Source: a virus. From it: a stretch of 64,000 bases of DNA. The position numbers and the translations under genes were made by a program. The notes below the pieces were generated by a model that did not search any database, was not told the DNA's origin, and worked only from the letters and a program-made list of their open reading frames with translations. Where the stretch lies: the IMG/VR virus record IMGVR_UViG_3300044732_000737, positions 1 to 64,000 of that record; one strand, given 5' to 3'. Positions 8,030 to 63,395 of the stretch are shown here, piece after piece (the stretch's first letter is position 1; each line of letters starts with the position of its first letter).

Positions 8030-8030
8030 T

Positions 8031-8285: not shown

Positions 8286-8287
8286 AA

Positions 8288-8935: not shown

Positions 8936-8942
8936 ATTAACT

Positions 8943-25364: not shown

Positions 25365-25381
25365 CTTTAGCGTCCCCTGGT
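25365..25381 (-). promoter_or_regulatory. Putative phage RNAP promoter ACCAGGGGACGCTAAAG(AGAGA)
   Basis: Intergenic copy of the repeated motif, upstream of the GNAT and fibre genes. Confidence 0.85.
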
Positions 25382-25388
25382 AAATTGA

Positions 25389-25814: not shown

Positions 25815-28800
25815 TAGCGTCTCCGAATAAATGCACTTAAAACAATGTTTTGAAAAGCGTAAGAACCACCATTACCAAAACCACCTGCTAATCCATAGGA
25901 ATAACCATTTAAACTTAAAGTCTGAGTACCACTTGTACTAACTGTTGCTGTTGCTCGAATAACTTTAGAAGATACCCAGCCCTCTAAAGCTGTGATAGGA
26001 CTAGTGTCACTTATGCCGCCAAGGTTTGTAATATTAGAACTCTTTGTTTCTGTAACAACAACTCCATTAAACTGAAGTTGAGCTCTTAAAACAGAAATGT
26101 AGGTGTACTCATCCCAAATATAGGGATAAAGTGTATTAACCCTAGGATCAAAGGTTGCTTCAAGTAATACCACATCTCCTGCATTAGCATAAAATGAGAT
26201 TGATGCAAAAGTATCAACGAGAGGCCCGTATACAGAACCTTGCCACCATCTATGGAAACCATTATAAGAACCATATGCGGCTGTTGTAACAGCGTTAGTA
26301 TTGATATTTCCAGTAGCAACTACATTACCATTAAGCGTCATTTGACTGCCATTATAGCTAATGTTAGTAGAACTATTACCTAAAGCAAAAGTACCAGTGC
26401 TATTTAGTATGCCACCTGATCCAGTCATTGAAGTACCAGATACAGCAGGAGAACCTCCTACTTGAAGAGAATTTGTAAATACAGTACCACTGTTGATTTT
26501 ATCAGCGGTAATCGTATTTGCAGCAATTTTACTTGCATCAATAGTTCCAGCGCCAATATTTCCAGCAGTTAATATGCCAACCTGAGCCGTACCTATAGCT
26601 GCGCCTGAAATGTATGTAGAAACATTACCGCTTGTAATTGTGTTTAGAGTAGCAAACCCACCAGCACCAAGAGTACCTAATGTTATATTACTATTTAATA
26701 TACCAGCAGGAGCATTTACTAAATCTGTTCTAACAGCGCCTAAACCACCAGCGGTAACTACGCCACCACCAGCACCATATAAAGTACCATCTGAACCAAT
26801 TGAAATAGCACTATTAGCTACCGCTGTACCATTTCCAGTTCCAATACCATTAATGGTGTTCCCTGAAACACTAATTGCAGAATTGGCAACTGCAGTGTTA
26901 TTACCAGTCCCAATACCAGTAATATTACCACCAGACACAGCTATTGCACTATTAGCAACTACTGTTCCAGTACCCGTACCAATACCTGAAAGTGCTCCAT
27001 TAACAATATTAATTTCATTATTAGCTACTACTGTTCCAGTACCTGTACCAATACCATTAATTGAGCCACTAGAAATAGTAATAGCTGAATTAGCAACTAA
27101 TGTCCCAGTACCTGTACCAATACCGCTAATAGCACCACCTGAAATAGTAATTTGGCTATTTGCAACAGCGGTGCCTGCACCAGTAGAGGTACCACGGATT
27201 ATACCTGAAGCATCTACAGATGTATTATTGGCTGCTAAGACCCAGCTACCAGAAATTTTCTGGTATAACTGGAAAATATCTGTTGCATAAAAGATATCAC
27301 CATCTGCACCAGTAGGTCTACTTGCAATTGCACCTTGTGTAAATACATTTTTAGTTGCATCTAATGCACCTGAATAACCAAGACCACTAATTGTTACTGT
27401 ACCACCCCCAGCATTATTAAGTGTACCATTACTACTTAAGCTGATATTACTATTTAATATTCCAGCAGGAGCATTGCCTAGGCTAGTCTGTACTGCGTTA
27501 ATACCAGTAGCTGTGACTCCACCTGATGCAACAGGTCCACCAGAAACACTTAATGTGCCATTAGAATTGAGAGTTAATCCGATATTATTGTTTAAGATGC
27601 CAGCAGGAGCATTACCTAAGCTAGTTTGTACTGCGTTAATACCAGTAGCTGTAACTGTACCTCCACCTGCCCCAGACAAAGTACCATTTGATGCAATAGA
27701 TATATTACTATTTAACCATCCTGATGAAGCTGTAATTCTTGAAAAGTCAAGATTAGTCCCTGATCCAAAGATCACATTACCTGAAGCATCTTTAATTGTA
27801 AGTCCACGAGTATCAATGTTACTTGGTACTACAACTTGCCCATTAAGTGTTATAACACTACCGTTATAAGTAATATTATTATTAGTATTACCAACGGCAA
27901 ACTGACCATTTGAGTACACAACTGCACCTGCACCAGTCATTGTTGTACCGCTAATTTCAGCTGTACTAGATTTGATTGTACCAGATACTGTTAGATTACC
28001 TGTATTAGTTGTGATAGCTGATAGGCTACCTACTTTTAAAGCGGACAAATAAGGTACATTCCAAATAGTGTTATTTGTTACTGGATCATAAACACCATCA
28101 GATTGATAAACAGATTCACCCGCACTAATAACTGGAGGAGTAGCTTGCCATACTGTATCTGCACCCCATGATCCATTTGCAGGATACGAATTAATACCAG
28201 AGGTAGTAATGGTAGAGGGTGTAGAAGCCAAAGAAGTTAATGTTGTTTTACTATAACAAATTCTAGCAGAGGCACCTTGTTGTCCAGGAGAACCAGGAGA
28301 ACCGTTAGTGCCATTTGTACCAGCATAACTTATAGCAACTATACTGGCGTTAGTCCAGTTAATTTGAGTACTTGTAGTAGTTGCACTATCGGATATATTT
28401 ACACTTGCAGCCCATAAGGTAAATCCTGGACTAGGCGGATTCTGAATTGTTGAATTCCAATCCGTAGGTACATTATTAAATGAAGATGTTGCCCAAGTAT
28501 AAGTAGATGATCCTACTGGCCCTGCAGGTAAAGAGGCTGCCCAGCGATAAACTGTAGGTCTAGCTACTTGTAGTCCAGGAAGTCCTGTTGCACCATTTGA
28601 TGTAATTGATGCTATAGTAACTCCACTTGACCAGTCTACAACGGTATCAACTGTGCCTCCAGCAGCTGTGATTGACTTTGTAGCAGTCCAAAGTTGAATG
28701 CCTGAAGTTCCTGGATTTGTAGAAATATAAGTCAGCCAGTTATTACCTCCCGCATAAGCGGAATTTGTTCCTGTAGTCCAATTATACGCAGAAATATTAT

Positions 28801-32823: not shown

Positions 32824-35800
32824 TTACCTTAATCCTTTCTCTCTATTGTGGGAGTTAACCCCCTCAGCAATAGATGGGAGCATTCTATAAATTTCCGATT
32901 TTGTTTGACGACTAATATCGCCTGTAATATTTAGATTAATTACTTGTTGATTTTGATTAGACATTGCAGAAGCAACTCTAGCTTGTTGGGCCTCATTTAG
33001 GATAACTTCACCTGCATGAGCAAGTACTGGAGTAGCACTACCCATGTTGCCAGGAATAACACCACCAGCAGCAAATCCAGGCAAGAAACTAAAGAAAGAG
33101 CTAAGACCAGAGAATCCTTTACTAAAGAAATCTCCAATACCACTTCCAAAGACCTTCAGTTTATCTGCGAATCCACCTAGTATACCATCTTTATTACCTA
33201 TCAGACCTTCAAGTCCTTGAGTAATTTTTACATACATTGGTTTTGCTTCAGAAGAGCCTAGCTCTCCAAATATACTTGTACCTAAAGATTGACCTAAGCT
33301 TTTACTAATATCCCTAAATAAAAAGTCACCTATTTGATTAGAAAAGTTATCTATAACCGTGTTACTAAAAGCGTCAAAGAATGCTTTACCGGCATTATCC
33401 TTGCCTTTCAAAATGTCAGAGATTAAAGTCTTTCCTTGACCCAAGAAAGCTTGTTGTAATGATTGTTGACGAGATCTTTCGTCAGTAATTTGTCTTTCTT
33501 GTTCAATTAAAACAGCTCTTCTAGCAATTAGTCCTTGTAAAGTTTCACCTTCAAGTAATTGATTGTTACTAATTTTCTCGTTTAGTTTGTCTAATTCAAT
33601 TCTATCTTTAATTAGCTTATTCTTTTTAGCCTCATCAAGACCTAAAATAACGGTAAGATCTAACCCAAGTAATGCAGCTTGTTTGCCTAAAGTATTCGCA
33701 GTAAGTAGTTCTTTTCTTTGTCTTTCAAGATTCTTCTTACGTTGTTCTGCCCTAGCCCTCTCATCTAGATTAGCCTGAGTAGCCCCTTTAGTTTGCAAGT
33801 TCTTGATCTTCTCTTCTTCGTCAATTATCTTCTTAGTCAATGCAAGGATATTTTCTCTTGTTTTTGCATCATAAGATAAATAATCAGCTAAATCAATATT
33901 TAAAGAGGCTAATGCGTCTTTTAATGATAACCCTAGTAATTTACTTGCTTCCTCTGTTTTGGCTTTAATTGTTGCTTTATTCTTAGAGAAATCAAGTAAG
34001 TTAGCCAATAAAGATTTGCTTGGATCATATTTTTGATCTAATGCAGTTTCAATATCTTTAGATATTGCAGTAATTTTACCTATAGTTTCTGCAGAAAGTT
34101 CTCCAAAAGATTTATCTAATAAATCAGGAGAAAACCTAAATAATTCCGTAAATGTATTGTTTAAAGTTTTAGGGCTAACTTTATCATCAAATTCTTTAAT
34201 CTGTTTATCTAAAGTTTCTTTAAATTCTCCAGCCTTAACTAAATCAAGTGGTAACCCAGTTTTACTTTTTGGTAAGCTATTAATATTACTAATAGTAATA
34301 CCAATTTTAGTTAGATCATTAATTACTTCAGTTAAAGGTATTTTAGATTTAATTACATCATCTATCTTTGATTTGACATTTGATTTATTAAGCTGATCTT
34401 CTAAATTCTCTAAGGCAGTCTTTTCTTTCTCTTTTGGCTTAGGTGTAAAACCTTCACGAATTTTTCTAATTTCCTCGGTTACTACCTTACCCCTAGCAGC
34501 AATTTGTTTTCTAACTTTATCTAAATCACCTCTACCCCCTACTGTTGTATTTTCAATTTGTGAGGCTTGTAGTTGTAATTGATTAGCTTCAGTTATTAAG
34601 CTTACTAATTTTTGTTGATCCTTAAGCGGAGCAGAGTAAATTTTACTAAAATCAGATAATGCATTAAAGTTAAGATTAAGCAATGCATCCGCAAATCCAC
34701 TAGAAGCTGCCTTTGCTTGGTTTAATTGGTAAGTAATACCTACAGTCTCTAGTCTAATTCTTTGAGCTAAACTTTCTGCTTTCTTAAAATCTTCACCTAT
34801 TCTTGCTGCTTCTAATTCTTTAGTTAATACACCAACATTTCTAATTCTATCGTATAATGCCGTAAATTGGCGCTCACCTAAGTTTAACAAGTCAACCCAA
34901 TTAACACCAGAAATATTTGCAGTTTTTAATGCTGTTTCTATTTGATACTTAATAGTATCAGAAGCACCTTTTTCTAACTGTAATGAGACATCAATTTTTA
35001 TATCAGAAATTGCTGCATTTATATTTGAGGCTTCAGTTGCATCTTTGGTCTTAAGTAGCTGGGCTTGTAACTGTTTTAGCTTCTCAACTTTATCTTTTAG
35101 TCCAGGAAGATCTTCAACATTAAACACACCGTTTGCATCGTAGGATATTTTTAGAGCATCTAAATTTTCTTTAAGATTTTTAATGTCCCCTTGAAATACT
35201 GTAACTTCAATATTACGAACTTTAACATCTCTAGCACGAGTAGCAACTGCAGCATAATCTTTTACAGCCTTTTCTAATTCTTCTTTTGCCTGTTGGATAT
35301 CTGCTCTCTGTTGAGCCCTTTCTTCAGGAGAAAGAAAGAATCCACGGAATCCTTCTGCATTACGAAGATTTTTGAGTGCCTCATCTCTTGCTTGCGCTGT
35401 TTTATTAATAGAAGCAACAAGTTGTTGTCTTTCTTCTCCTAACAAATCCCCTTTACCAATATCCGCAAATTCTTGAAATGCAAAATCAATTAATGCTGCT
35501 GAGTCAATAATGTCTTGACCTAAATAAGATACATCTGTCCTAATACTATTAGTTAACCTTTTGCTCCAATCACTAAAAATTTCAGCTGATTGATCTCCAT
35601 TTAAAATTAAACCTATTCTTTGACCAAAGTTAGTAAAGAATCCATAAGCAATGTTTGCATCAAATAGTTCATTGAATGGAAATGCAAAGAAGTTATAGAG
35701 CGCATCTAAAGGATAAGCAACCACTCTAGCTAATGCAGAAGTAGCAACCTGACTTACCTCAGCAGCTAATTTTAATATAGACTTCTCAACTTTTGCAGGT

Positions 35801-38800
35801 TCTGCTTTAAAGTTTAAAGTAGCAATTCTAGCATCAAAGGCAATATCTTGCCCTTGGGTTTTGCTAACTCTTTCACTAAACTTTTCATATCTATTTAATA
35901 AAGTTTCTATTTGCTTTGTTGTCTTCTCTGAAACTTCACCAAGCTCTTTTGATTCTTCTTTAGCTGCGCCTATAGATTTTTCTATAGCTTTTGACAAACT
36001 AGTAAACTCACTTACATCTTTTGGATTAATGTATTTTAAAGAAATTTGATCAGAAGAATTATTAAACTTAGTTGATAACTCAGGATTAATTTGTTTTAGG
36101 TTATTAGAAATATTAGTTGCACGTTTGCTAAACTTTTCAAACTGGCTAAATTCTTGAATAGCTCTTGGTATTGCTTCCTTTATACCTGTAGTAAACTCAA
36201 TCAAGGTGTTAGTTGTTTTTCTTAAACCATCACTAAACTTTTCTGTGAATGTGTCCCCATCACCAATAGTATAAATTAAAGCTCCAAATAAAGTAATAAC
36301 CCCAGTTGCTGCTGCTGCAGTACCTGTTAAAATAGGTATGAGTCTAGCTAACCAAGATACTTTATTCGAAGGGCCCATTAGAGCTGCATCTTTTAATAAT
36401 CCAAATTGTTTTAACACAAACTCAAAAGCCTTTGAGACGCCTGCACGAACAGAAGAACTACTTAGTAAAAACCATCCTAGTAAACCGCCTTCTAAAGCAT
36501 AATTAGATACTGTAGCAGCAATGTCCATTACTCCAGCTTTTGCTTCAGTAGTAAATAAAGTAATTAATGCACTTAATGCGATTACTGTACCTGCTTTACC
36601 GAATAATATTTTTCCGATTGCGCCTGTAGTTCCAAAAGTAGCGCCTAAACCCGCTAGTCCAGTAAATTTACCTTTTACAAACTCTAGGAATAAGTCTAGT
36701 TCCGCCTTTATTTTACTAGCTGCATTTAGCCCAGTAGCAGAGTTTAATATTGTATTTTTACTTACATCATTAGCTGCTTCTTTAGCAATACTACTTGCAG
36801 TGTTAACATAACTACCAAATGAATATGTTACTCCATCTGGTTTAGAACCAAGTATGAGGGCTTTTAGTAAGGAATCACCTGTCTTTGTAGCAGATGCAGC
36901 CTTATCTGCAGATTCTTTTGCTGTCTTAGTGAAATTACTAAACATATCTTTATCCATGCCAGCACCAGCCATTGAGAAGTCAGCAGCAGTAAAGCCACCT
37001 TTCATTCCTGCCTTTGGTCCAAAAATAAAATCAGATAAGGATAGTCCACCAGCTAAGAAAGATTTCTTACGTTCTTCATCAGTTACCCTCTTAATACCAG
37101 TAAACAATTTAGCAATTGTTGACTTTGCATTAGTTAGAATAGTTCCAGCAACGGTGCCATTATCAAATAATCTGGCAAACATATTTTGTAATACTGAACT
37201 ACCTGCAGTTTGTGCAGTGATCATTGCTGTAATCTTTAAAAGAATACTCCTGACAGTATCAACTAGAATTTTACCGGCTACATCTCTACCTAAAATTGCA
37301 GTAAGTAAAAGTGGTGTTGCAACAAATGCGGCCTGTACAAAGTTTACTTCTTTTGTAAATACAGAGAGCAAAGCTGTAATACCGGCTACAGCGAAAGCGA
37401 CATCAACCTTATCACCAAACACACGTTTAATAATTGATTCTTGTGTAAGTTTCTGTGTAGCGCTAGAAGATAAGATACCTCCTAATCCTTTGCTAACTTC
37501 TGAAATTTGTTTTGTAATTTGATCAAAACCAACAACTCCAAATATCATTAAAGGTAAAATCCCAGTTTCACCTAATGTTAAAAGATTTAAAATACCTTTA
37601 ATACCATTACCAATAAGACCTAAATCACCTAGGAATTCGTTAATAAAACCTGAGCTAAAGCTTATGATTGCTCCGATAATAGAAGGGATTTCTTCAACAG
37701 CACCTTTTAATAAAGTTGCAAGAGTAGAACCTAAGTTCTTACCAATTTCACCAATGATTGAAAAATCAAAAACAGAGGATAATCCATTTTCTAAAGCAGA
37801 ACCTAAATTCTTTGCTAGATTAATTCCTAATACAGCAACAAAAGTAGATAATGCTGCGGGACTAACTAAAGAGGCAATAATGCCACCAACAACGGCAGTA
37901 GACGCAACCCTAGCTGCTTTTTCTAATGAATCAGAATTAATTGATAACGTGTCTGTAATTTGTCCGCCAAAGTCACCAAAAGAAAAATCTTTCCTTGATA
38001 GGTTACTAAATAAGTTTATTACGGAAGAACTAAAAGCTTTTATTTTCCTGGTACCCTCAGATACTAATTTATCTGACCAGTCCAAAATTCCTTCTACCAT
38101 GTCTGGCCAGTAAGAACGACCAACTACTTTATCGTAAATATCGAAAAATACCGCTTTAACTTTAATTCCAAAGGCACGAATATCAAGATACACATTGTTT
38201 AAAAGTTTAGTATACTTGTCTATTCTTTTTACACTCTCCTCATAATATCCAGCGTACTGTAGCTCAATCCCAAGGTTATGCCTAGCTCGCATTCCAATAC
38301 CTGCAGCCGCCCTAACTAGAGCTGCATTACCTCTTCCAACTTGTTCAGTTGCTGATTTATAAAAACCAGATAAAGAGGAAAATAAATTTGAGGAAAAAGA
38401 AGAACTTAAAGCATCTTTAAATTTAATACCAAAAGTAATAAATAGTCTTAATGTGTCATCAAGTAAAGTTATAATTGAGTTTTTAACTGCCTTTGTAGAT
38501 ACTTGAAACCCTGTTGCAAATTTGTTTATGTTTAAAAGTCCAATTGATGAAACCATTAGCACTAAACTATTTGTAACACTTACAGCAAACTTCTCGGTGT
38601 ATGCGGAAAATCCAGAAAGGCTAAAGATAAATCGGCCAATAGTATTTGACACGTTACCTAATACACCTCCAAATGACCTTCCTAATTCAATTAAATATGA
38701 ACCAACAGATTGTGTTGCTAACTGGAAAGCAATAATAAATTTTTGGAAAATGACTGCGCCTAGTCTGTCAAAGAGTCTTATTATTTCAGATACATAATCT

Positions 38801-40191
38801 CCAATTGCTTTTATTTTGTCAAATCTCACATTGCCAATAACAATTAATTTATTTTCTAAAAGACCTAGACTAGCTAAGAATTCTCTGAATGGCATTAGGA
38901 ATTTAACAATCTCTCGATAGTTTAAGGCATCTAATAATGCTGTACCAATCTCTACGTCACCTGAAAGTATTTTCCACCATCCTTGTAGACTAGTCAAGTC
39001 TGGGTCTTTAATTACTTGCACAAGATTAGCAATATTCTTTTGTAGTTCAGGTATAGATTTTGACAAGGCTATTCTTGATATTGCATCAAAAAAGTCAGAT
39101 TTATAATCTACGCCAAAGAATTGTAATGTTCTTCTAAATACAGCTGCAGTTGCTGTCAATACGCTTTTTAACCTTATAGACTCTTCTGTATAAAGTTTTA
39201 GGAATGCAATATTTAGATTAGCACCTAATTGAAGTTGTAAAAAGGATACAACTGGAATTAATCTTTTAATCTCAATACTTAATTGAGCAAACAATGGAGC
39301 TACTGATCTACCTAAATCTGCTGCAGTATCAATTGTGTTTTGAATACTAGCGGAAATAATAACTGCAGAGGTAACTATTGCATTTCTATTTTCAGCTATA
39401 ATATCTGCTGCTACACTAATTGCTTTAGCTATTCCAGGAGTTGTTCCTGTTTCAGTAAAAATTTCACCTAAAGTTAGTCCCGATATGTTTCTTATTTTTA
39501 ATAAAGATTGACTAATTGTTAATCCTACTTTTTCAAATTCAGCAGAGATTTGTTTAGATTGACTAGATAGTGCATCAAAAATAGCTTCGGTAGTTACTTT
39601 ACCTTCTTGAGCTAAAGCACGAAGCTCTCCAAGGCTTACCCCTAGGCCATCTGCGATAGCTCTAGCGAGTCTAGGTGTTTGTTCAAATACTGAGTTAAGC
39701 TCTTCTCCACGGAGAGTGCCTGACTGTAAACCCTGATTAAGCTGGGTTAAAGCTGCTTTAATAGAGTCTGCAGAACCACCAGAGACAATGCTTGCCTTCT
39801 GAATAGTATCTGTAATTTTTAAAATTTCACTAGAAGGCTTTTTAAGAGATTTTGCTAATCCCGAAAATACTTCTGTCGTTGATTCAATGCTTGTTCTTGT
39901 GTTTTGGGATATCTTAACAAGTTCTTGTTGAACTCGAATAAGCTCGCCCATATTATCTATACTTAATGAAAGTCTAGAATTTAATTGAACAAAAGAATCA
40001 GAGGTTTTCTGCACAACAGCTGCAAAGCTGAATCCTGCAACAACTCCTGCAACGCTCTTAGCGAGAGAGGCAATCGAATCTGCTGTCGATTTTGCTGTAT
40101 TCTCAATACCTTGGACTGACTTATTCAGTTTATTAAGGTCACGCTGGGCCTGTTGAGAATCAGAAGATATCGTAAATTGAATATCTGACAT
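32824..40191 (-). CDS. Tape measure protein (2455 aa)
   Basis: N-terminal tape-measure domain (ALTQLNQGLQSGTLRGEELNSVFEQTP...LRALAQEGK), long helical body, C-terminal GFAAGG...AHAGEVIL. Confidence 0.93.
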   Translation of the reverse strand: MSDIQFTISSDSQQAQRDLNKLNKSVQGIENTAKSTADSIASLAKSVAGVVAGFSFAAVVQKTSDSFVQLNSRLSLSIDNMGELIRVQQELVKISQNTRTSIESTTEVFSGLAKSLKKPSSEILKITDTIQKASIVSGGSADSIKAALTQLNQGLQSGTLRGEELNSVFEQTPRLARAIADGLGVSLGELRALAQEGKVTTEAIFDALSSQSKQISAEFEKVGLTISQSLLKIRNISGLTLGEIFTETGTTPGIAKAISVAADIIAENRNAIVTSAVIISASIQNTIDTAADLGRSVAPLFAQLSIEIKRLIPVVSFLQLQLGANLNIAFLKLYTEESIRLKSVLTATAAVFRRTLQFFGVDYKSDFFDAISRIALSKSIPELQKNIANLVQVIKDPDLTSLQGWWKILSGDVEIGTALLDALNYREIVKFLMPFREFLASLGLLENKLIVIGNVRFDKIKAIGDYVSEIIRLFDRLGAVIFQKFIIAFQLATQSVGSYLIELGRSFGGVLGNVSNTIGRFIFSLSGFSAYTEKFAVSVTNSLVLMVSSIGLLNINKFATGFQVSTKAVKNSIITLLDDTLRLFITFGIKFKDALSSSFSSNLFSSLSGFYKSATEQVGRGNAALVRAAAGIGMRARHNLGIELQYAGYYEESVKRIDKYTKLLNNVYLDIRAFGIKVKAVFFDIYDKVVGRSYWPDMVEGILDWSDKLVSEGTRKIKAFSSSVINLFSNLSRKDFSFGDFGGQITDTLSINSDSLEKAARVASTAVVGGIIASLVSPAALSTFVAVLGINLAKNLGSALENGLSSVFDFSIIGEIGKNLGSTLATLLKGAVEEIPSIIGAIISFSSGFINEFLGDLGLIGNGIKGILNLLTLGETGILPLMIFGVVGFDQITKQISEVSKGLGGILSSSATQKLTQESIIKRVFGDKVDVAFAVAGITALLSVFTKEVNFVQAAFVATPLLLTAILGRDVAGKILVDTVRSILLKITAMITAQTAGSSVLQNMFARLFDNGTVAGTILTNAKSTIAKLFTGIKRVTDEERKKSFLAGGLSLSDFIFGPKAGMKGGFTAADFSMAGAGMDKDMFSNFTKTAKESADKAASATKTGDSLLKALILGSKPDGVTYSFGSYVNTASSIAKEAANDVSKNTILNSATGLNAASKIKAELDLFLEFVKGKFTGLAGLGATFGTTGAIGKILFGKAGTVIALSALITLFTTEAKAGVMDIAATVSNYALEGGLLGWFLLSSSSVRAGVSKAFEFVLKQFGLLKDAALMGPSNKVSWLARLIPILTGTAAAATGVITLFGALIYTIGDGDTFTEKFSDGLRKTTNTLIEFTTGIKEAIPRAIQEFSQFEKFSKRATNISNNLKQINPELSTKFNNSSDQISLKYINPKDVSEFTSLSKAIEKSIGAAKEESKELGEVSEKTTKQIETLLNRYEKFSERVSKTQGQDIAFDARIATLNFKAEPAKVEKSILKLAAEVSQVATSALARVVAYPLDALYNFFAFPFNELFDANIAYGFFTNFGQRIGLILNGDQSAEIFSDWSKRLTNSIRTDVSYLGQDIIDSAALIDFAFQEFADIGKGDLLGEERQQLVASINKTAQARDEALKNLRNAEGFRGFFLSPEERAQQRADIQQAKEELEKAVKDYAAVATRARDVKVRNIEVTVFQGDIKNLKENLDALKISYDANGVFNVEDLPGLKDKVEKLKQLQAQLLKTKDATEASNINAAISDIKIDVSLQLEKGASDTIKYQIETALKTANISGVNWVDLLNLGERQFTALYDRIRNVGVLTKELEAARIGEDFKKAESLAQRIRLETVGITYQLNQAKAASSGFADALLNLNFNALSDFSKIYSAPLKDQQKLVSLITEANQLQLQASQIENTTVGGRGDLDKVRKQIAARGKVVTEEIRKIREGFTPKPKEKEKTALENLEDQLNKSNVKSKIDDVIKSKIPLTEVINDLTKIGITISNINSLPKSKTGLPLDLVKAGEFKETLDKQIKEFDDKVSPKTLNNTFTELFRFSPDLLDKSFGELSAETIGKITAISKDIETALDQKYDPSKSLLANLLDFSKNKATIKAKTEEASKLLGLSLKDALASLNIDLADYLSYDAKTRENILALTKKIIDEEEKIKNLQTKGATQANLDERARAEQRKKNLERQRKELLTANTLGKQAALLGLDLTVILGLDEAKKNKLIKDRIELDKLNEKISNNQLLEGETLQGLIARRAVLIEQERQITDERSRQQSLQQAFLGQGKTLISDILKGKDNAGKAFFDAFSNTVIDNFSNQIGDFLFRDISKSLGQSLGTSIFGELGSSEAKPMYVKITQGLEGLIGNKDGILGGFADKLKVFGSGIGDFFSKGFSGLSSFFSFLPGFAAGGVIPGNMGSATPVLAHAGEVILNEAQQARVASAMSNQNQQVINLNITGDISRQTKSEIYRMLPSIAEGVNSHNREKGLR

Positions 40192-41562: not shown

Positions 41563-41579
41563 CTTTAGCGTCCCCTGGT
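41563..41579 (-). promoter_or_regulatory. Putative phage RNAP promoter ACCAGGGGACGCTAAAG(AGAGA)
   Basis: Intergenic copy of the motif abutting the upstream terminator. Confidence 0.85.
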
Positions 41580-41601
41580 AAAAAGGGGAAATTAATCCCC
41601 T
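41580..41601 (-). terminator. Intrinsic terminator after the major tail protein
   Basis: AGGGGA-TTAATT-TCCCCT-TTTT. Confidence 0.75.
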
Positions 41602-43427: not shown

Positions 43428-44519
43428 TTAAGCGTGGAGAATAGGTAGAATACCTAAGTTCAATGCGCTCATCTTACGTGCCCATGAACCAGCAGTGGCA
43501 TAATTAGCGTTGCTAGCGAAGGCATTAGTAGCGCCAGCCCAGTCGTAACCCATTGGGTGTACAACGAAACCATAGCGATACCAGATAGCGGTAGAACCAC
43601 CACCAGTATAAGAAGCAGCTGAACGATCAACTTCAACAGGTGTAGGAACAGCAATGTTTGTAAAGCTGATAGCACCTGGCTTGCAGATGAATGTGGTCTT
43701 TACAGAACGGTCATTTACGTTAGCAGAGGCAGACAAGTCACCTTGAGCAACACGGCTCAAGATCAAACGGAACTTACCACCGAACACGGTTTGGAATGTC
43801 AAGTTACCATCGGTAACAGTTGTGACATCAACCAAGTTAGCAGCACGCAACTCAGCCAACACTTCAGGTGAAGTGATCATGTACATGAAGTCTGGCTCAT
43901 AATCCTTAAAGCCCATACCTAGAGCTTGGAATAAACGCTGACCACGAGCAGCACCAATAGCTGTAGCGTCAAACAGCTTACGCTGATCAGATGCAGAAGT
44001 AGCAGCAGCACCAAAGGTACCGGCAGCGTTAATATCTACGAAGCTACCAACACCAGCGCCATCAGCGTCTGTGTCATAACCAACGATACCAGCACCACGA
44101 GAAACTTCGTATGCAGCTACACCTTTAAGTGTGGCGATAACGGCATCAGACTCGTCTTGGCTACGAACTTCAGAGAAGTCACGAGCAATCTTAGAGAGGC
44201 CATCTTGTTGTGAAACAACTTGTTGTAGATTGACTTGCTCAGAACCAAAGGTACGAACTGTCTTAATGTAGTCAGCAATTTCGGTAGACACATCAGTGTA
44301 AGTACCTGCATTGGCGACAGAGAGGCTAGCAACGTTAATGTTAGCTGCCAAAGGCTTGTACCAGCGCATTTGACCAATGAAGCTTTCGCCTGTTGGGTCA
44401 ATACGGGCATCAGTACCAACGATGCCAGTGCTGTTAAGCTTCTTGGCATTTGTGTACATTTCGTCAGCGTATGCAGAAATAGCAATAGCTACGTTTTGGA
44501 ACATTGTATGATTAATCAT
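43428..44519 (-). CDS. Major capsid protein
   Basis: 363 aa, after the scaffold, strongly biased codons, C-terminal PVEVDR...GGG...HPMGYDW...W.RK. Confidence 0.9.
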   Translation of the reverse strand: MINHTMFQNVAIAISAYADEMYTNAKKLNSTGIVGTDARIDPTGESFIGQMRWYKPLAANINVASLSVANAGTYTDVSTEIADYIKTVRTFGSEQVNLQQVVSQQDGLSKIARDFSEVRSQDESDAVIATLKGVAAYEVSRGAGIVGYDTDADGAGVGSFVDINAAGTFGAAATSASDQRKLFDATAIGAARGQRLFQALGMGFKDYEPDFMYMITSPEVLAELRAANLVDVTTVTDGNLTFQTVFGGKFRLILSRVAQGDLSASANVNDRSVKTTFICKPGAISFTNIAVPTPVEVDRSAASYTGGGSTAIWYRYGFVVHPMGYDWAGATNAFASNANYATAGSWARKMSALNLGILPILHA

Positions 44520-44539: not shown

Positions 44540-45235
44540 TTAAAAGGTGAAGCTACCAAGCTTTCCACCTGCGGCAAGTGCTAACACTTCCTCGGTGGTC
44601 ATTTCAGTAATCTTCTTGTTGGGATCGAGTTTGGGAGTACCGTTCATATTGTTACTACCACCCCCTGAATTAGATTTAGGTTTAAATAGGAAGGAATTAT
44701 CTTCATTCTTCACATATTGTCCTACAAAATCTTTGATTGATACACCTGATTTATGAATCCATGCACCAGTCTCTGGATCTTGGATGAGTTGATCGATAAT
44801 ATCACGATAAGCCATTTGGCTAGATCGGTCATTACGGAAATCAAGGTTAGTTAATGCATTGCGAACTGCACCATCTCTAGTGAGTTCAGTTACTTTGCTT
44901 TCGGCCAACGCAAGCTTCTCAGTGAGTTCTGCGAGCTTCATCTCAGCAACTTCTTTATGCTTACCTTCGTCCTCCAAAGCTTTCATCTTACGTTGTTTAG
45001 CTTCATCTTCTAAACGAACACGCTCTTTAACAGCATTGTCACGTTCTTGATATGCTTTATCTAAACTAACTTTAATTTTAGAAAGACGCTCTTCAACCAA
45101 ACGGTTAATCATGTCTTCTGTATCTTTGTTGTTAGTACCGCCTCCACCAGTATCAACCTGATCGGCTTGAAACTCTGGGTTAGGTGTGGTACCATCATCG
45201 AGGAACTCTTTGTTTCCGAACTTATCTACTTTCAT
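44540..45235 (-). CDS. Capsid scaffolding protein
   Basis: Charged coiled coil, FLFKPKSNSGGG, directly upstream of MCP. Confidence 0.85.
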   Translation of the reverse strand: MKVDKFGNKEFLDDGTTPNPEFQADQVDTGGGGTNNKDTEDMINRLVEERLSKIKVSLDKAYQERDNAVKERVRLEDEAKQRKMKALEDEGKHKEVAEMKLAELTEKLALAESKVTELTRDGAVRNALTNLDFRNDRSSQMAYRDIIDQLIQDPETGAWIHKSGVSIKDFVGQYVKNEDNSFLFKPKSNSGGGSNNMNGTPKLDPNKKITEMTTEEVLALAAGGKLGSFTF

Positions 45236-45301: not shown

Positions 45302-48300
45302 TTACGGTCCAATACCATACCAATCCATACCTTTAGGTATAGGAGCTAGTATATCTTTTCTCGTAATTTTGTTGCGAGGATTTAGTAAGCCATCCTCAAT
45401 AGCTTTTTGGCGAAGTCGATTGTATGTTTCATTTGACATACCTTCTTCTTTTAGTGCCAGTAATGTTTTCTCTATTGTCTCACCTTCTAAAGCATCTGCA
45501 TAGATTTCTCTAAGAGCTACTTTGGACTTTGCTGCTTGTCCTATGTTGGTGAAGAAAGCATCGTGAATCGTTGCGGTTTCAATACCACTTTTACGACCCC
45601 ATAAATGAAATCTTCTTACAATAGCGGCATCATTCATGTGGTTACCGTTAACCCCCATGCCAATGCCAGCCCTTTGGAGGCTTGATTTTCCTAGAAGTGA
45701 AGCATCTTCTGCTCGATCTTCGTAAATATTACGGACCATCCTGTTAGCTTCTTTGTCATAGAACTCAATGCTAGTTTGGATTTTAGGTCTGTATCTCTGG
45801 TATAAAGTCTTACCATCAAATGTTACCCAAGGTACATCGACCTTCTGAGTTTCATCAACGTAAGCTTTAGCAGCTTCTTTCCAGAATTGTACGAATTTTT
45901 GAGTTACTGGTGCTCTCTCAGCTAGTCTCCGAGACATAATCTCTGACACTGCCTTGAAGTCTTGAGGACCAATTAGTCCCTTACGAGCATTCATTAACTT
46001 ATCGACAAACGCTTCTACGTCTGGGTGAGAATCACGAGCGTGTGCTAAAAGTTCTTGCCCCACAGAGGTTTCACCTTCAACAACTTCGTTTAACTCACGT
46101 TTTAATTGTTTAAGACCAAATACGACATTTTCAGCTCCTAGCCTATCTGCCTCTTTAATCTTTGCATCTATAATATTAGTTACTCCACGAAGTTCTTCAC
46201 GGGTAACAACAGTATATCCTTTTGTCTCTAACACTGAAGCAAACTTAGCTTCAATATTAGCTGCTTGTGTTGCTTTACCTGCACCATAGAAAGAAACCAT
46301 GTTTTGTGCTTTTGCAGCCTTTTGAAGATCTGTCCACTGAACATTAGCATCTCTCAATCCTTGTATTTTCTGAAACTCTGGATCAGACACTGTATCCATA
46401 GCTACTAAGTCATACAAACGATTTTTTTGTAATGTAGGTAATACGTTTGAGTTGATTGAAATATCTCTATCCCCAGTACTTAATCCGATGATCTGAGCAC
46501 CAGAGGATGAAGCATCATTCTCAATCATTAATTTTGTCTTATATGTCGCTAGTTTATTTACATCAGTAAAGTCACCACCTACATGATCATATATACGAGC
46601 ATACTCAATAGCTAGTCTGGAGATTTTTGGAATCTCTTCTGCCTCAGTAGCTCTGATAATAGGATGCTCTAGAAATTCCCTGATACGCCTATCACGTTGG
46701 GTAGTTTCCCTCATTAGGCGACCTAAACTTAAAATATCTCTTTGATTTCTCATAAAGATTTCCATCCGACCTGCTTGTGTTAACGCCTCAGTAGCTGGAC
46801 CAATCATAGAACCAGTTTGAATCATTAACTCCTGAACAATTTCAGGTGTAACGGCCTCTGCCTTAGCAGTATTCAAGAACGGACGAACAACTTCACCACC
46901 AGTAGGTGTTAAGAAACCTTGATAGTAAACACGACCACGACCATCGATATTAGCAACAACGCTAAATGGCTTTCCAGTATCTCGATGATACTTTACAGTC
47001 TGCATAAAGCTATATCCCTGATCTCCACGAGTCAAAATAAGTTTTCTAAAGTCATTTAAGTCATCATACTTTTTTACATTTCCACGAGGATCTCTAAAGC
47101 GAACAACATCTTCCATAAATCCAGCATACTCATTATCAACCTCATATTTCACTGACATTGTGTGATTAAGCATATCAGCAAAATCACGATCAATTAGTAC
47201 TCTGTCATAATTAGCATTAGCTCTACGTGTAATAATCGGAATACCTGTGTTATTGCCTCTAGCATCAAAATAAGTCTTAGCTCCAGGTCTTACATAAAGC
47301 TTATCTCTATCAGAGTTAATACCAATTCGTTTTGCTAATAAAGCACTACGATTAGCCCTTTGTAAGTTGAGCATATCTTTATTTAAGATCTGAACTTCAC
47401 GACTAACAGTATCTCTCCAAGGACCACTAGCACGACCAGTCTCAAGATCAACAACTGATCTCCTAGTCTTGCCACGCATAAGTACACGGATGTAGCCTTT
47501 GTCTTTTAATGCTGTAAGAATCTGCGATCCATCAGCATGGTAGTCTTGTAGTGTAGGCTTAAAGAATGGGAAGTCTGCGACATTCCAAGATTCTCTTAGT
47601 GTTTTACCTACATTAATTGCCAATGAATCGTAGTCAGTTGACTTACCATCAGCAACAACAGTCAATACCTTTGATAAGGTATCAATTGCTTTCTTGTCGT
47701 TTAAACCGCCCTCTACTAATTGATTTAAATAACTTTGTCTTCGTTTACCGAATAAAAACTCTAAGTCCACAATCTTACGATAGTCTTCTCTTCTGTTTCT
47801 TAAGAATTCATCAATTAATCTTTCACTAGGTACTTTGTCTTTAAAAAAGAGTTTAGCTCCAGGAACATTACTTAACAAGAATTTAACTACTTTGTCTTTG
47901 AAGTTATCAACACCAATTCTGGGAGCACCTCTAAACCAAGTATATACAGGAGTTCTTCCAGTATAATACAAAGATCTAGCTAATGGCCTACCTTCTGTAG
48001 TAGCCCAATTACGAACATAACGTTGATTATCAATATTATTTTCGATAATCTCGTCAAATGTATAGTACTTACCAAAGATCTGAACTTTAGCTGGCTCTCC
48101 AGCGACCCCATAAGAATCAAACTGCTGAGATCTAGCTCTTGATCTACGATCTAAAATACGGCTTGTGTTAACTACAGAATATTGCATTTCACCACGAGTA
48201 ACATTCATAAAGTTAACCCATGGTTGCTTATCGTTATTGTATCGCTCAAAAATAACACGTAGATTCTCTGCAATAGCAGTCTGTTGATTTACAGATACTG

Positions 48301-49738
48301 AATCATCTAAGCTTTCAACGAATTGTTGAATCCATGCTTTTTGTTCTTGATTAAGAGCCTTAGAATTTTTAATAAAGTCTATACGTTCTTGTAATACATT
48401 AAAGTCTGGATCATAAAGTAAAGTAGAACTTTGTTCGCCTGTGAAAGGATCAAAGCTATTGTTACGTTCATCAAACTCATTGTTTGCTCTAATTCGAACT
48501 GATCGTTTACCTGCTAGAGTAGTACCACGATAATCTACTAAAGAAATAGTCTGAGCAGTATTCTCAGTGTCTGCAATATACATTGCCTTTAACTGTTTAG
48601 TAGCCTCTGTATTCCTCATTAGTTCATATGGTCTAGCCACATTAATTGCAAACAGATTAGACTCTGCCTCGGCTACAGCTGACTGCCTAGTTGGGAAGAA
48701 ACTTGTTCTTGCATTATCAAGCTTCCTTAATGCAGCAATGCTTAGTTGTTGACCTTTAGCAGTCGTAAATGCTTTTACATCCAAAATACCTTTCTGTAAT
48801 AGTCCAGCACGCTCCTCACTACCTAGATGTTTAACTTGAACCATCATAGGCTGGCGCTTAAGCCAAGAACCGTAAGTTTCTACTGGTGGTAAACTACCAT
48901 CAACAAGTTTTTCAGAAGTTTCTCTTAGCTTGTTAACCTTTACTCTTGTATCTTTTGCCTCAGCAGCTTTTAATAGTTCTTCTTTGTTCTTTAAAACAGG
49001 AACCATAGAGCTACGGCAATTCCAGTGAAGTGGTGGTCTAAATCTTAGATCATCAATCTTGTATACTTGGCCATCATGGTGTGCACAGACTCTTGAAGTT
49101 CTATTGTCTAGTACAGCAGTAAATCTGTAACCTTTTAAAACCTCTTTATTACGATCCATTACTAAATTAAGCGCTTGTGCTTGTGTATTAGTAATAGCAG
49201 TCCTAACTAAAACCTTAGCCTGAACCTCAGTCAGGGTGGTTGTTTTAATTACATCTGAAATAATTTCTTTTACTGGCTTATTGTCTGCTAAACCAGATTT
49301 AATCTTTCCATCAATCCTAGCAAGTTCACTCGTACCAACAGTATCAAAGTGATCCCTTAAGCTTTTGGATGCTGTAATGTTAGGTCCAATAAGTTTAGGA
49401 ATAGCATCACTACCCCTAGGCTTTTGAACTCTGAAGAATGAACCAGCACTCTTCTCTAAATTGTTAGCATGAAAGCTTACAGAGGCATCTGCATAGTCAC
49501 TAACTGAATTGCTAGCAATCATGTGCAACTCTTTTGTTGCTCGAGTTACCTCTGGCTTTACATCGGCCTTAATGTTCTTTGTTAAGAGTACTCTAAGGCG
49601 CTTTTGATGTCTACGAATGCCCCTACTTACATTAGTGGAGGTCTCCGCTTCATATAGTCTTGTATCAGCTAAGTGCTGTACAATTCTGTCATAAATTTCC
49701 GTATTAATAGGAGTTGGCATATTTCCCCTTGATACCAT
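45302..49738 (-). CDS. MuF (SPP1 gp7 / Mu gpF) minor head protein fused to a single-subunit RNA polymerase (probable start MPTP at 49720)
   Basis: N-terminal: LVRTAIT...YRFTAVLDNRTSRVCAHHDG...PPLHWNCRS...ETYGSWLKRQP. C-terminal: DGRGRVYY, NDASSSGAQ (A), KAAKAQNMVSFYG (B), VNGNHMNDAA, TIHDAF (C). One uninterrupted ORF. Confidence 0.92.
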   Translation of the reverse strand: MVSRGNMPTPINTEIYDRIVQHLADTRLYEAETSTNVSRGIRRHQKRLRVLLTKNIKADVKPEVTRATKELHMIASNSVSDYADASVSFHANNLEKSAGSFFRVQKPRGSDAIPKLIGPNITASKSLRDHFDTVGTSELARIDGKIKSGLADNKPVKEIISDVIKTTTLTEVQAKVLVRTAITNTQAQALNLVMDRNKEVLKGYRFTAVLDNRTSRVCAHHDGQVYKIDDLRFRPPLHWNCRSSMVPVLKNKEELLKAAEAKDTRVKVNKLRETSEKLVDGSLPPVETYGSWLKRQPMMVQVKHLGSEERAGLLQKGILDVKAFTTAKGQQLSIAALRKLDNARTSFFPTRQSAVAEAESNLFAINVARPYELMRNTEATKQLKAMYIADTENTAQTISLVDYRGTTLAGKRSVRIRANNEFDERNNSFDPFTGEQSSTLLYDPDFNVLQERIDFIKNSKALNQEQKAWIQQFVESLDDSVSVNQQTAIAENLRVIFERYNNDKQPWVNFMNVTRGEMQYSVVNTSRILDRRSRARSQQFDSYGVAGEPAKVQIFGKYYTFDEIIENNIDNQRYVRNWATTEGRPLARSLYYTGRTPVYTWFRGAPRIGVDNFKDKVVKFLLSNVPGAKLFFKDKVPSERLIDEFLRNRREDYRKIVDLEFLFGKRRQSYLNQLVEGGLNDKKAIDTLSKVLTVVADGKSTDYDSLAINVGKTLRESWNVADFPFFKPTLQDYHADGSQILTALKDKGYIRVLMRGKTRRSVVDLETGRASGPWRDTVSREVQILNKDMLNLQRANRSALLAKRIGINSDRDKLYVRPGAKTYFDARGNNTGIPIITRRANANYDRVLIDRDFADMLNHTMSVKYEVDNEYAGFMEDVVRFRDPRGNVKKYDDLNDFRKLILTRGDQGYSFMQTVKYHRDTGKPFSVVANIDGRGRVYYQGFLTPTGGEVVRPFLNTAKAEAVTPEIVQELMIQTGSMIGPATEALTQAGRMEIFMRNQRDILSLGRLMRETTQRDRRIREFLEHPIIRATEAEEIPKISRLAIEYARIYDHVGGDFTDVNKLATYKTKLMIENDASSSGAQIIGLSTGDRDISINSNVLPTLQKNRLYDLVAMDTVSDPEFQKIQGLRDANVQWTDLQKAAKAQNMVSFYGAGKATQAANIEAKFASVLETKGYTVVTREELRGVTNIIDAKIKEADRLGAENVVFGLKQLKRELNEVVEGETSVGQELLAHARDSHPDVEAFVDKLMNARKGLIGPQDFKAVSEIMSRRLAERAPVTQKFVQFWKEAAKAYVDETQKVDVPWVTFDGKTLYQRYRPKIQTSIEFYDKEANRMVRNIYEDRAEDASLLGKSSLQRAGIGMGVNGNHMNDAAIVRRFHLWGRKSGIETATIHDAFFTNIGQAAKSKVALREIYADALEGETIEKTLLALKEEGMSNETYNRLRQKAIEDGLLNPRNKITRKDILAPIPKGMDWYGIGP

Positions 49739-49765: not shown

Positions 49766-51391
49766 TTATACAGTGTTGTCGTTGTCATCGTCCCTATTAT
49801 TAGGGCGCATATTATCTGTGTCTGAGATAGAAGAATCTATGCTCATTGCCTTAGTGTCTACTAGAGGGTCACTCTGGATCTCTGCTATGCCATCTTCATC
49901 GTTGTACTCAGCTGGGAGCACATCATTGAACTTAGCAATAGAAATAAATGTAGAACGTGGAATAATACCTTGCTGGTACCACTCTGTAACTAGTCTCATC
50001 CAGTCTGCGCCTACTGGTGTAGGATTAAAGTCAGCACTTAATGTGAACTTAATATCTGTTGGAAGAACATCAATATTGTATTTCCACTTAAGCATTACTG
50101 TAATAATCTGTCTCATTGTCTCTGAGATACGAGTATTGAGCATACCTAGTTGGGCAGTCTGAGCAGCATTACGGATTTCTAGACTTACGCCTGACTCACC
50201 TGAAGAGCCCTCTGGTGAAAGCATACGAATGCCCATACGAGCCATTTCTTCAATAGTAGCCGCAATAGCTTTTTCCATATCTGCTAAAGCGCCTGTTGGA
50301 GTGTCCAATGCTCTAATGTCGTCTCCAGCACGGAGCTTAATCCATGAGCCAAGACCTGCCTCTACAATAGTTTCAAACTCTTCATCAGTCATATCTGACA
50401 TTACTACTGGAGTGTATGTAGCTGCACCATAAAGTAAGTGATTACGTCGGCTAATCTTGTTGTACAAGGCAATCTCACGATCAATCAATGATTGTAGGAT
50501 TGGTTCAACAGGGTCGATCTGACCATTCAATGGATAGGCAGGAATGAAGTTCATTCTCTCACCGTTCATCAAAGGTACTTCTGTACGTGTCTTTACCCAT
50601 GCTGCATTAGCATTGTCTGTTTGATACTTGGATGTAACATTACCATTAATAACGCTTACAGACTCATTAGTGTCTCGTGTGTAAGTATCTACGACAAGCA
50701 GTCCTGACTCATCTAAATAATAGTGAGTAACAGTGTCTACATAGTCTGGGTGGAATTCATTTTTAGAATAGTCTTCCATGTAGTAACGGAAAAGTAAACT
50801 TGTTAATACTTGTTTGTTAGTATTACGGTCTTGACCCCTACGCCAGTTAATAATGTTCTCTGCTTGAATGAGCATTACATATGGGGACAAAGCCTTGGCC
50901 TCTTCCATAGTGAGAGCGTCTGGATTAGCTACTGTAGGGTAGTCTACCAAACACCAAGCCCTAGAAGACTGTAGCTCTTCCCATATAGCCGCATCTAAGA
51001 AACCATGTAGTGAAGTACCATCAGCACCAAAAGAAGTACGAATCCAGTCTTCAGTTCCTTCAGGAAATACATTCTCTGGAAGCTCAATAGCTGCTTGCTT
51101 ACGTAATAAGCCGCCTACAAGAACCTTAGCATACTGTGCTGTTAGTCCAGGAAGCTCACCCTCAGCACGATAAAAGTTGTACTGTTGCGAACTCATTGTG
51201 GGAGAGAAGGGTAATAGTAAGTTATTGTACGTTACAGTATCAATTGAGTCATCATATGCTCTTGCATGAGTCTGTCCATTAAGAACAGCTCTAGCCCTCT
51301 CCCAGAGAGGCCGCATAGACTCATATGCTGCGTTAGGATCCCCAAGGCTCTTCGTCTTAGCCTTTGATGGGGTCGTTGTTAGGTTTGCCAT
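49766..51391 (-). CDS. Portal protein (DUF4055-type)
   Basis: YNFYRAEG, LVDYP, AENIINWR, acidic C-terminus; directly upstream of MuF. Confidence 0.9.
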   Translation of the reverse strand: MANLTTTPSKAKTKSLGDPNAAYESMRPLWERARAVLNGQTHARAYDDSIDTVTYNNLLLPFSPTMSSQQYNFYRAEGELPGLTAQYAKVLVGGLLRKQAAIELPENVFPEGTEDWIRTSFGADGTSLHGFLDAAIWEELQSSRAWCLVDYPTVANPDALTMEEAKALSPYVMLIQAENIINWRRGQDRNTNKQVLTSLLFRYYMEDYSKNEFHPDYVDTVTHYYLDESGLLVVDTYTRDTNESVSVINGNVTSKYQTDNANAAWVKTRTEVPLMNGERMNFIPAYPLNGQIDPVEPILQSLIDREIALYNKISRRNHLLYGAATYTPVVMSDMTDEEFETIVEAGLGSWIKLRAGDDIRALDTPTGALADMEKAIAATIEEMARMGIRMLSPEGSSGESGVSLEIRNAAQTAQLGMLNTRISETMRQIITVMLKWKYNIDVLPTDIKFTLSADFNPTPVGADWMRLVTEWYQQGIIPRSTFISIAKFNDVLPAEYNDEDGIAEIQSDPLVDTKAMSIDSSISDTDNMRPNNRDDDNDNTV

Positions 51392-55424: not shown

Positions 55425-55493
55425 GAGCAGTAGTGGGATTCGAACTCACATTCCAGAGATAACGTCTGATTCTACCTATTGAACTATACTACT
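55425..55493 (-). tRNA. Degenerate tRNA / tRNA-like element (atypical anticodon arm, no encoded CCA)
   Basis: AGTAGTA-TA-GTTC AATAGGTA GAAT-CAGA CGTTATC TCTG-GAAT-GTGAG TTCGAAT CCCAC-TACTGCT. Acceptor, D and T arms recognisable; anticodon stem only 4 bp. Confidence 0.6.
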
Positions 55494-58635: not shown

Positions 58636-58652
58636 CTTTAGCGTCACCTGGT
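58636..58652 (-). promoter_or_regulatory. Putative phage RNAP promoter (variant ACCAGGTGACGCTAAAG) heading the packaging/lysis/head operon
   Basis: Intergenic motif copy followed by AGAGA. Confidence 0.85.
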
Positions 58653-58662
58653 ACTTTTTGAC

Positions 58663-59255: not shown

Positions 59256-59272
59256 CTTTAGCGTCCCCTGGT
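59256..59272 (-). promoter_or_regulatory. Putative phage RNAP promoter ACCAGGGGACGCTAAAG(AGA) upstream of the hydrolase
   Basis: Intergenic motif copy. Confidence 0.85.
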
Positions 59273-59277
59273 GGTTT

Positions 59278-62871: not shown

Positions 62872-63096
62872 TCATTTTATTTCCTCATAGTGTGTCCCAT
62901 TATAGGATTCAATAAATTTCCATTTACGCTCACATGAACTACAACTTAAATTTCCAGTTGTAATATTCAAATCAGCCTGTAAGTTATTACCATTACGATC
63001 ATATGCAGGTAAAGTGTATGCAGCAGTTCTAACAGTGTTAGTAATGTAGAATCTACAGTCACTTCTCAAACAACTTAATAATTCAAAATTTGTCAT
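62872..63096 (-). CDS. Small Cys-containing (possibly Zn-binding) protein
   Basis: C-x3-C ... CSSC. Confidence 0.55.
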   Translation of the reverse strand: MTNFELLSCLRSDCRFYITNTVRTAAYTLPAYDRNGNNLQADLNITTGNLSCSSCERKWKFIESYNGTHYEEIK

Positions 63097-63395
63097 GTGT
63101 GTTCTATTATTTCAATTCCAGCTTCTTTTATAGCTGATAAGCAGATTGGGCAAGGTTTAGCATTTAATGGGTCACCCTGTCTACCATATCTAGCTACAAA
63201 GATTCTGTGTGCTTTACTAAGATCTTTGCATTTAAGAATAGCATGTACTTCAGCATGAAGATAAATCTTATATGGTTCACCAACCTCTTCGGCATGACGT
63301 GCCATTAGAGGGTGGCTCTTCACATAATTGTTATATCCAACTGAGAGTACACGGCCCTTCTTATCATACACGATGGCAGTCAGGGCGTGTCTCAT
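63093..63395 (-). CDS. Cytidine/dCMP deaminase-fold zinc protein
   Basis: SVGYN, LHAEVHAI, AKPCPIC, AGI. Confidence 0.85.
   Translation of the reverse strand: MRHALTAIVYDKKGRVLSVGYNNYVKSHPLMARHAEEVGEPYKIYLHAEVHAILKCKDLSKAHRIFVARYGRQGDPLNAKPCPICLSAIKEAGIEIIEHT

Follow-up and report, generated by a model that had tools for sequence, protein, structure and literature searches.

A MuF minor head protein fused to a T7-type RNA polymerase, a candidate virion polymerase, in a freshwater phage and its relatives

Why should a phage join an RNA polymerase (RNAP) to a minor protein of its head? The question is raised by one gene in IMG/VR virus record IMGVR_UViG_3300044732_000737, of which the first 64 kb (64,000 nucleotides, hereafter the window) were analysed. 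The record is a complete genome of 77,817 bp, with a 127-bp end overlap and a CheckV completeness of 100%, and all of its genes lie on the minus strand. An initial annotation, made from the letters of the window alone, had proposed that an open reading frame (ORF) between the portal and scaffold genes encodes a MuF minor head protein fused to an intact T7-like RNAP, and that MuF serves as a tag by which the polymerase is packaged and injected with the genome. We found the fusion to be real, and its features to be those of a candidate virion RNAP. The coordinates of all features are collected in Table 1.

Pfam searches detected both domains within the single ORF, each above its curated cut-off. 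Phage_Mu_F (PF04233) matched residues 148-245 (nt 49004-49297) with 43.2 bits against a cut-off of 29.6, covering positions 9-111 of the 112 in the hidden Markov model, and RNA_pol (PF00940) matched residues 1059-1434 with 28.9 bits against a cut-off of 22. The neighbouring gene assignments confirmed the location between portal and scaffold genes, and all sequence motifs quoted in the initial annotation were found at the positions it gave. In the MuF half these are LDNRTSRVC..HDG (residues 210-223), PPLHWNCRS (235-243) and TYGSWLKRQP (288-297). PHROG profiles extended the head-protein part beyond the Pfam domain, with phrog_241 (head morphogenesis) matching residues 46-437 (E 6e-52) and phrog_115 matching residues 55-476. 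The fusion protein was the only PF04233 match in the genome, and the phage therefore has no separate MuF protein.

The structural model of residues 1-570 had a predicted local distance difference test score (pLDDT) of 85.2, and its matches in BFVD were predicted minor capsid or head morphogenesis proteins of many phages, with E values as low as 3e-17 for matches outside the family. These structural matches include a protein of phage Xp12 in which MuF is fused to an ADP-ribosyltransferase. A Foldseek search of the same model against the PDB gave no match at E <= 0.001, and apparently, therefore, no MuF structure has been solved. A complex prediction of MuF residues 1-345 with the portal scored 0.20 against a mark of 0.32, a result that is neutral on binding.

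The second half of the protein was identified as an RNAP by several comparisons. A PHROG RNA polymerase profile matched residues 908-1165 (E 6e-23), and a profile built from the family recovered the T7 RNAP sequence with an E value of 5.7e-18. An AlphaFold model of residues 340-1478, built with an alignment of 40 sequences, had a pLDDT of 82.8 and a predicted template modelling score (pTM) of 0.74. Its best PDB match by Foldseek was T7 RNAP (E 5.5e-20), followed by mitochondrial RNAPs. The superposition on T7 RNAP was confirmed by VIA-align, with a Z score of 30.3 and a root mean square deviation of 3.3 Å over 526 aligned residues, model residues 226-1137 lying on T7 residues 39-882; model residue 226, where the alignment starts, is residue 565 of the fusion protein. 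Yeast and human mitochondrial RNAPs gave Z scores of 26-28 and the N4 mini-vRNAP one of 16.9. As modelled, residues ~565-1478 make up a whole T7-type enzyme, including N-terminal domain, thumb, palm and fingers, which is nearer to T7 than to N4.

An intact active site had been claimed for this enzyme, and the alignments upheld the claim: the equivalents of T7 D537, K631, Y639 and H811/D812 all aligned. Phmmer and profile alignments paired IHDAF of the fusion protein with T7 IHDSF, the family profile aligned motif A, EnDASaSG, to T7 FDGSCSG, and in the model the O-helix terminates at the Tyr-Gly pair of motif B. Conservation was assessed in an alignment of 36 full-length relatives with identities down to 20%. 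Residues R936, D1075, K1140, K1143, Y1151, G1152, D1370 and D1393 were invariant in all 36, the catalytic residues among them, and H1367, the equivalent of T7 H784, was kept in at least 90% of the aligned relatives. The position of T7 R627, which contacts the nucleoside triphosphate phosphates, was indeed found to be Gln (Q1139), as the initial annotation had pointed out, and the residue beside it, K1140, is invariant across the family. This pattern of conservation argues for an apparently active enzyme.

The polymerase part might instead be an inactive relic, retained as a DNA-binding or structural mass in the capsid; the low Pfam score of 28.9 bits and the Gln in place of the R627 equivalent would suit such a relic. 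It would hardly be expected, however, to keep the catalytic Asp residues, the Lys, Tyr and Gly of motif B, the Arg of DxRGR and D1370 invariant in 36 sequences, with H1367 nearly so and the entire T7 fold retained. A relative adds a further point against it. In the metagenomic EBPR siphovirus 1 (JF412302.1, 25771-31144) the orthologue is in two pieces, gp47 of 1052 aa and gp49 of 431 aa, because an HNH endonuclease gene interrupts it a little ahead of motif A, and homing-type insertions of this kind are typical of functionally constrained sites. We regard an inactive relic as extremely unlikely. Many metagenomic homologues start or stop at motif B; four loci with a longer or split gene were searched with Rfam at the gathering threshold, and no group I intron was identified in them.

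A chance ORF or a mis-assembled junction was considered as a source of the fusion and ruled out: the fusion is found in hundreds of independent contigs and assemblies, and the junction is therefore real. A search of IMG/VR for the same architecture found at least 539 stretches encoding it. The C-terminal part matched 358 protein clusters at 90% identity, nearly all full-length ones carrying both Pfam domains, and an exhaustive search of 1.84 billion representatives returned 143 proteins (representatives at 50% identity). Among the full-length proteins of these 143 the match always began about 330-360 residues in, and all six of the most distant members examined carry MuF. The order portal gene, then fusion gene, recurred in 42 related loci. 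The only cultured phages found to have the fusion were DSS3_VP1 and DSS3_PM1 (Naomviridae), to which EBPR siphovirus 1 is added from metagenomes. The DSS3_VP1 orthologue, gp28 with the accession QGH74596.1, is full-length and 49% identical, and it follows the portal gene; it is annotated merely as "minor head protein-like", and RNA polymerase is nowhere mentioned in the paper describing the DSS3_VP1 family. No account of the fusion emerged from literature searches on MuF with RNA polymerase, on both Pfam accessions together, and on RNA polymerase in Naomviridae or DSS3_VP1, in agreement with the initial annotation, which was aware of no characterised example. The fused design is thus widespread, unannotated and absent from the searched literature.

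What, then, might such an enzyme transcribe? The phage has a second polymerase, a free canonical T7-like RNAP encoded in the early region, which is 21% identical to the fused one; DSS3_VP1 likewise has a free and a fused RNAP. Two classes of promoter-like motif accompany the pair. Class II resembles T3 and SP6 promoters, the extended motif being TACCAGGKKACGCTAAAG(AGAGA), and 6 matches were found where 0.14 were expected. Four of its sites stand ahead of late operons and a fifth ahead of SSB and the replication genes; the free RNAP gene itself contains, at 6278-6295, a class II-like site that has 2 mismatches. A homologous repeated motif, GGGTGCGTTAAAGA, is present in DSS3_VP1. The fusion gene sits in the late structural operon behind these T3-like motifs. 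Upstream of it are the terminase, lysis and PhoH genes, and downstream are those of the head-tail adaptor, the major tail protein and a tape measure protein of 2455 aa.

Class I is present in a single copy upstream of the free RNAP gene, where the number of occurrences expected by chance is 0. DSS3_VP1 carries it twice, at the start of its early region, with ATCTATAAT at 35811 and 36258. A scan of IMG/VR with a version of the motif in which 19 bases are specified found class I in 112 loci, often as 2-4 tandem copies, giving 119 distinct instances. In every informative locus (57/57) it lay upstream of the free RNAP gene and co-oriented with it, at a median distance of 2250 bp, and the free RNAP homologues of these 57 loci were 37-98% identical. 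Many relatives have a short inverted repeat (GATAC..GTATC) after class I, which could form a hairpin at the 5′ end of the transcript. The class I pattern gave 7 matches in 596 Gb of bacterial genomes, against about 4 expected by chance; one of them is this phage in a metagenome-assembled genome (MAG) from Lake Mendota, and the others are without the flanking consensus. When the early and replication region was searched by k-mers for additional repeats, only classes I and II and repeats of the fibre genes came up.

In class I an A-rich tract precedes TATAAT, which is a perfect -10 hexamer, and it could accordingly be the host sigma70 RNAP that reads it. The fusion protein would then still be packaged, and the fused polymerase would serve some other purpose after ejection, which might be that of a motor drawing in the genome, of a priming enzyme for replication or of a reader of another promoter; T7 RNAP and mitochondrial RNAP can pull in DNA or prime replication. 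As read from its sequence, however, class I lacks a TG extension, and a -35-like hexamer is likewise absent at 16-18 bp upstream. In the 119 instances the non-sigma70 part, GTGAGAAAA, is constant almost letter for letter, as are the bases flanking TATAAT, even though the accompanying free RNAPs fall to 37% identity, and this part is common to a marine Ruegeria phage and to the present freshwater phage of 37% GC, which is unexpected for promoters tuned to their hosts. A scan for sigma70 and terminator consensus sequences over 44-64 kb likewise showed no enrichment over shuffles. Class I does not appear to be a typical host promoter, and we consider it unlikely that the host enzyme is its reader.

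The role proposed in the initial annotation, in which MuF is the capsid-loading tag of an injected early RNAP, fits the new evidence, because the phage has a second, free RNAP, a near-invariant non-sigma70 early element, and T3-like putative promoters before its late operon. We therefore favour, as fairly probable, the reading that the fusion is a virion RNAP, which MuF loads into the capsid and which is ejected with the DNA and reads class I, whereupon the free RNAP takes over. Late in infection the fusion protein would be made together with portal, scaffold and coat, and through its MuF part a small number of copies would enter the procapsid at the portal, in the manner of SPP1 gp7. In the next infection the protein would exit with the DNA and begin transcription at the single class I element. 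The transcripts would yield the early genes, including that of the free RNAP, which would then read class II ahead of the replication and late genes. From their positions, and from the likeness of class II to T3 and SP6 promoters, we infer this assignment of class I to the fused enzyme and of class II to the free one. The outcome would be a two-polymerase relay independent of the host RNAP, comparable to that of N4 and built from different parts. That the enzyme also pulls the genome in, as had been suggested, is purely speculative.

The fusion protein might also not be delivered at all, and instead work inside the producing cell as a late polymerase held at the portal or procapsid. There it might, for example, serve late transcription or couple transcription or priming to packaging. 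Its gene is probably expressed with the late genes, given the class II site at 58636-58653, and a protein that binds the portal need not be ejected. For late transcription, however, a free RNAP with probable promoters ahead of the late genes is already available to the phage. Moreover, MuF/gp7 proteins are internal to the capsid, and fusions of MuF are regarded as effectors that are delivered (PMC5512222). The early element, for its part, can be read only by an enzyme that is in place before expression of the phage genes begins. We think a polymerase that stays in the producing cell quite improbable.

Several points nevertheless count against a packaged and ejected polymerase. The paper on DSS3_VP1 reports no virion proteomics, and a protein of 167 kDa would have to traverse a long tail tube. 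Gln replaces the R627 equivalent, and through the perfect TATAAT host sigma70 RNAP may read class I. The division of the two motif classes between the two enzymes rests on position and on T3/SP6 likeness, and a comparison of the specificity loops did not discriminate between the polymerases, loop conservation being the same as that of the rest of the protein in both (0.52 versus 0.52, and 0.70 versus 0.70).

The chemistry of the DNA may offer a reason for keeping such an enzyme. The cultured relatives DSS3_VP1 and DSS3_PM1 (Naomviridae) contain DNA with deoxyuridine (dU) in place of deoxythymidine (PMC8323127, PMC12697855), and this may explain why an early polymerase of their own is kept. The present phage has a Dcd-like deaminase that is 38% identical to the dCTP deaminase of DSS3_VP1, and a search of the genome found no ThyA, no ThyX and no YfbR-type dTMP phosphatase. 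It may make dU-containing or otherwise modified DNA, by a route unlike that of DSS3_VP1. Tentatively, and with rather less confidence than the term probable would convey, we extend the favoured reading to an ejected T7-type polymerase that reads a near-invariant, AT-rich promoter of at least 29 nt on uracil-containing DNA during entry, in a family of phages independent of the host RNAP.

The origin of the phage was revealed by contig JBIKJV010000357.1 (13.9 kb), whose proteins are 96-100% identical to those of window positions 2100-9176 and which belongs to a Lake Mendota 'Phycisphaerales' MAG. This shows that the phage is of freshwater origin; as for the host, the MAG is at best a weak hint, and a binning artefact is more likely. 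The tRNA gene would encode an ochre suppressor if the anticodon TTA given by ARAGORN holds. The head module has a scaffold gene and no protease gene; a ClpP-family protease encoded far from it could be the prohead protease or be directed at the host. Of the four giant tail genes, that at 32824-40191 encodes the tape measure protein (PF20155), and the product of that at 10550-15037 ends in a Peptidase_S74 chaperone domain. Internal repeats of the fibre genes supply most of the repeated k-mers of the genome.

Table 1. Features of the fusion gene, the polymerases, the promoter-like motifs and other genes (window positions, unless given as positions of the record)
Feature	Position	Strand	Basis or remark
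MuF-RNAP fusion gene	45302-49738	-	Single uninterrupted ORF, 1478 aa; PF04233 and PF00940 both above curated cut-offs
MuF / SPP1 gp7-type minor head protein part, aa 1 to ~475	48314-49738	-	phrog_241, phrog_115, model
Helical connector, aa ~476-564	48047-48313	-	Outside the MuF profiles and the T7 RNAP structural alignment; no assigned family
T7-type single-subunit RNAP with N-terminal domain, aa ~565-1478	45305-48046	-	Model, Foldseek, VIA-align
DGRGRVY, aa 932-938	46925-46945	-	Equivalent of T7 DWRGRVY 421-427; HMMER alignments; R936 (DxRGR) invariant
Motif A NDASSSGAQ, aa 1074-1082	~46519; D1075 at 46514-46516	-	D1075 equivalent to T7 D537
Motif B / O-helix KAQNMVSFYG, aa 1143-1152	46283-46312	-	K1143, Y1151, G1152 equivalent to T7 K631, Y639, G640
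NGNHMND, aa 1364-1370			Holds H1367 and D1370
Motif C IHDAF, aa 1391-1395	~45565; H1392-D1393 at 45560-45565	-	Equivalent of T7 H811-D812
Class I candidate early promoter AAAAGTGAGAAAA-N7-ATCTATAAT	8869-8897	-	Single copy, 1.66 kb upstream of free RNAP gene
Intrinsic-terminator-like hairpin and T-run	8905-8935	-	Read from sequence; closes late region just before class I
Free canonical T7-like RNAP, 722 aa, early region	5042-7210	-	PF00940 E 3.9e-80
Class II T3/SP6-like promoter-like motif TACCAGGKKACGCTAAAG	58636-58653	-	Ahead of terminase-to-head operon holding the fusion gene
Further class II copies	59256-59273, 41563-41580, 25365-25382, 5020-5037	coding strand	
Portal gene	49766-51391	-	phrog_145 E 2.5e-58; directly upstream of fusion gene
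Scaffold gene	44540-45235		Downstream side of fusion gene
Major head protein gene	43428-44519		After scaffold gene
Two dCMP/dCTP-deaminase-family genes	63093-63395; record 76460-76876	-	
Nucleoside 2-deoxyribosyltransferase-like gene	3277-3690	-	
tRNA gene	55425-55493	-	Rfam 37.4 bits; ARAGORN anticodon TTA
ClpP-family protease gene	record 68832-69515	-	Early/middle region, far from head module
Giant tail genes	10550-15037 (1495 aa), 15465-24395 (2976 aa), 25814-31651 (1945 aa), 32824-40191 (2455 aa)	-	
Family A DNA polymerase	230-2107	-	

Virion RNAPs are known from N4-like, crAss-like, phiKZ/AR9-like and P23-45-like phages, and to our knowledge none of them is a T7-type enzyme joined to a MuF head protein. 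N4 gp50 is, like the fused polymerase, a single-subunit enzyme of the T7 superfamily made late in infection; it is carried in the capsid and ejected, as is proposed here for the fusion. The N4 relay also agrees with the one proposed in that the ejected enzyme transcribes early genes which include a second T7-like RNAP, and in that a small number of early promoters are grouped together where the early region begins. N4 gp50 is, however, about 3500 aa long, with N- and C-terminal domains of its own and no MuF, whereas the fusion protein has 1478 aa and MuF, and the polymerase core found here is not of the N4 type, matching T7 with a Z score of 30.3 as against 16.9 for the N4 mini-vRNAP; phrog_2166 gave only E 3e-4 over 117 residues. 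Whereas the early promoters of N4 are DNA hairpins, the class I sequence is non-palindromic; N4 belongs to the podoviruses, and this phage encodes a tape measure protein of 2455 aa.

For a virion RNAP that is fused to a structural protein and transcribes the gene of a second RNAP, the closest precedent is gp96 of Thermus phage P23-45, which the initial annotation had overlooked. Gp96 is a virion RNAP fused to the tape measure protein and transcribes the pre-early genes, including that of a second, non-virion RNAP, and the two RNAPs use an AT-rich and a GC-richer class of promoters (PMC10770324). It resembles the present fusion both in the joining of an RNAP to a structural protein of the virion and in the presence of two promoter classes. 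The carrier differs, being the tail tape measure protein in P23-45 and a head protein here, and so does the polymerase, which is of the two-barrel type in P23-45 and a T7-type right-hand enzyme here.

On the head-protein side, MuF proteins bearing C-terminal effector domains for delivery have been described (PMC5512222). SPP1 gp7, Mu gpF and the MuF-effector fusions share with the present protein the N-terminal family, the slot after the portal gene and, in the fusions, a C-terminal cargo that presumably travels into the cell along with the DNA. The known cargoes are toxins or modifying enzymes (ADP-ribosyltransferases, RNases, RelA/SpoT), whereas here the cargo is an RNA polymerase, and no RNA polymerase was described as a MuF cargo in the literature searched. 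If the favoured reading is true, MuF would be a general handle by which large enzymes are loaded into capsids and delivered.

The RNAPs of T7, T3 and SP6 (Autographiviridae) share fold and catalytic motifs with the fused enzyme, and class II resembles the T3 and SP6 promoters. Those polymerases are free, expressed early and not packaged, unlike the fused enzyme as proposed. Class I and its proposed reader would represent a new, compact and orthogonal polymerase-promoter pair, which could serve as an expression tool.

The roseophages DSS3_VP1 and DSS3_PM1 are cultured relatives of the present phage and share with it the fusion orthologue, the free RNAP, a dCTP deaminase of related sequence and motifs of class I and of a class II-like type; the present phage differs from them in being a freshwater phage of 37% GC and in having no YfbR-type dTMP phosphatase. 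Should the proposed relay operate throughout, widespread siphovirus-type phages would possess a wholly host-independent two-polymerase programme, and a globally distributed family, Naomviridae together with hundreds of uncultured relatives, would be independent of the host RNAP from the first minute of infection. All known groups of phages with dU-containing DNA (PBS/AR9, phiR1-37 and Naomviridae) would then be tied to an early polymerase of their own. The proposal can be tested, as DSS3_VP1 and its host Ruegeria pomeroyi DSS-3 are available in culture and a precise candidate promoter has been identified.

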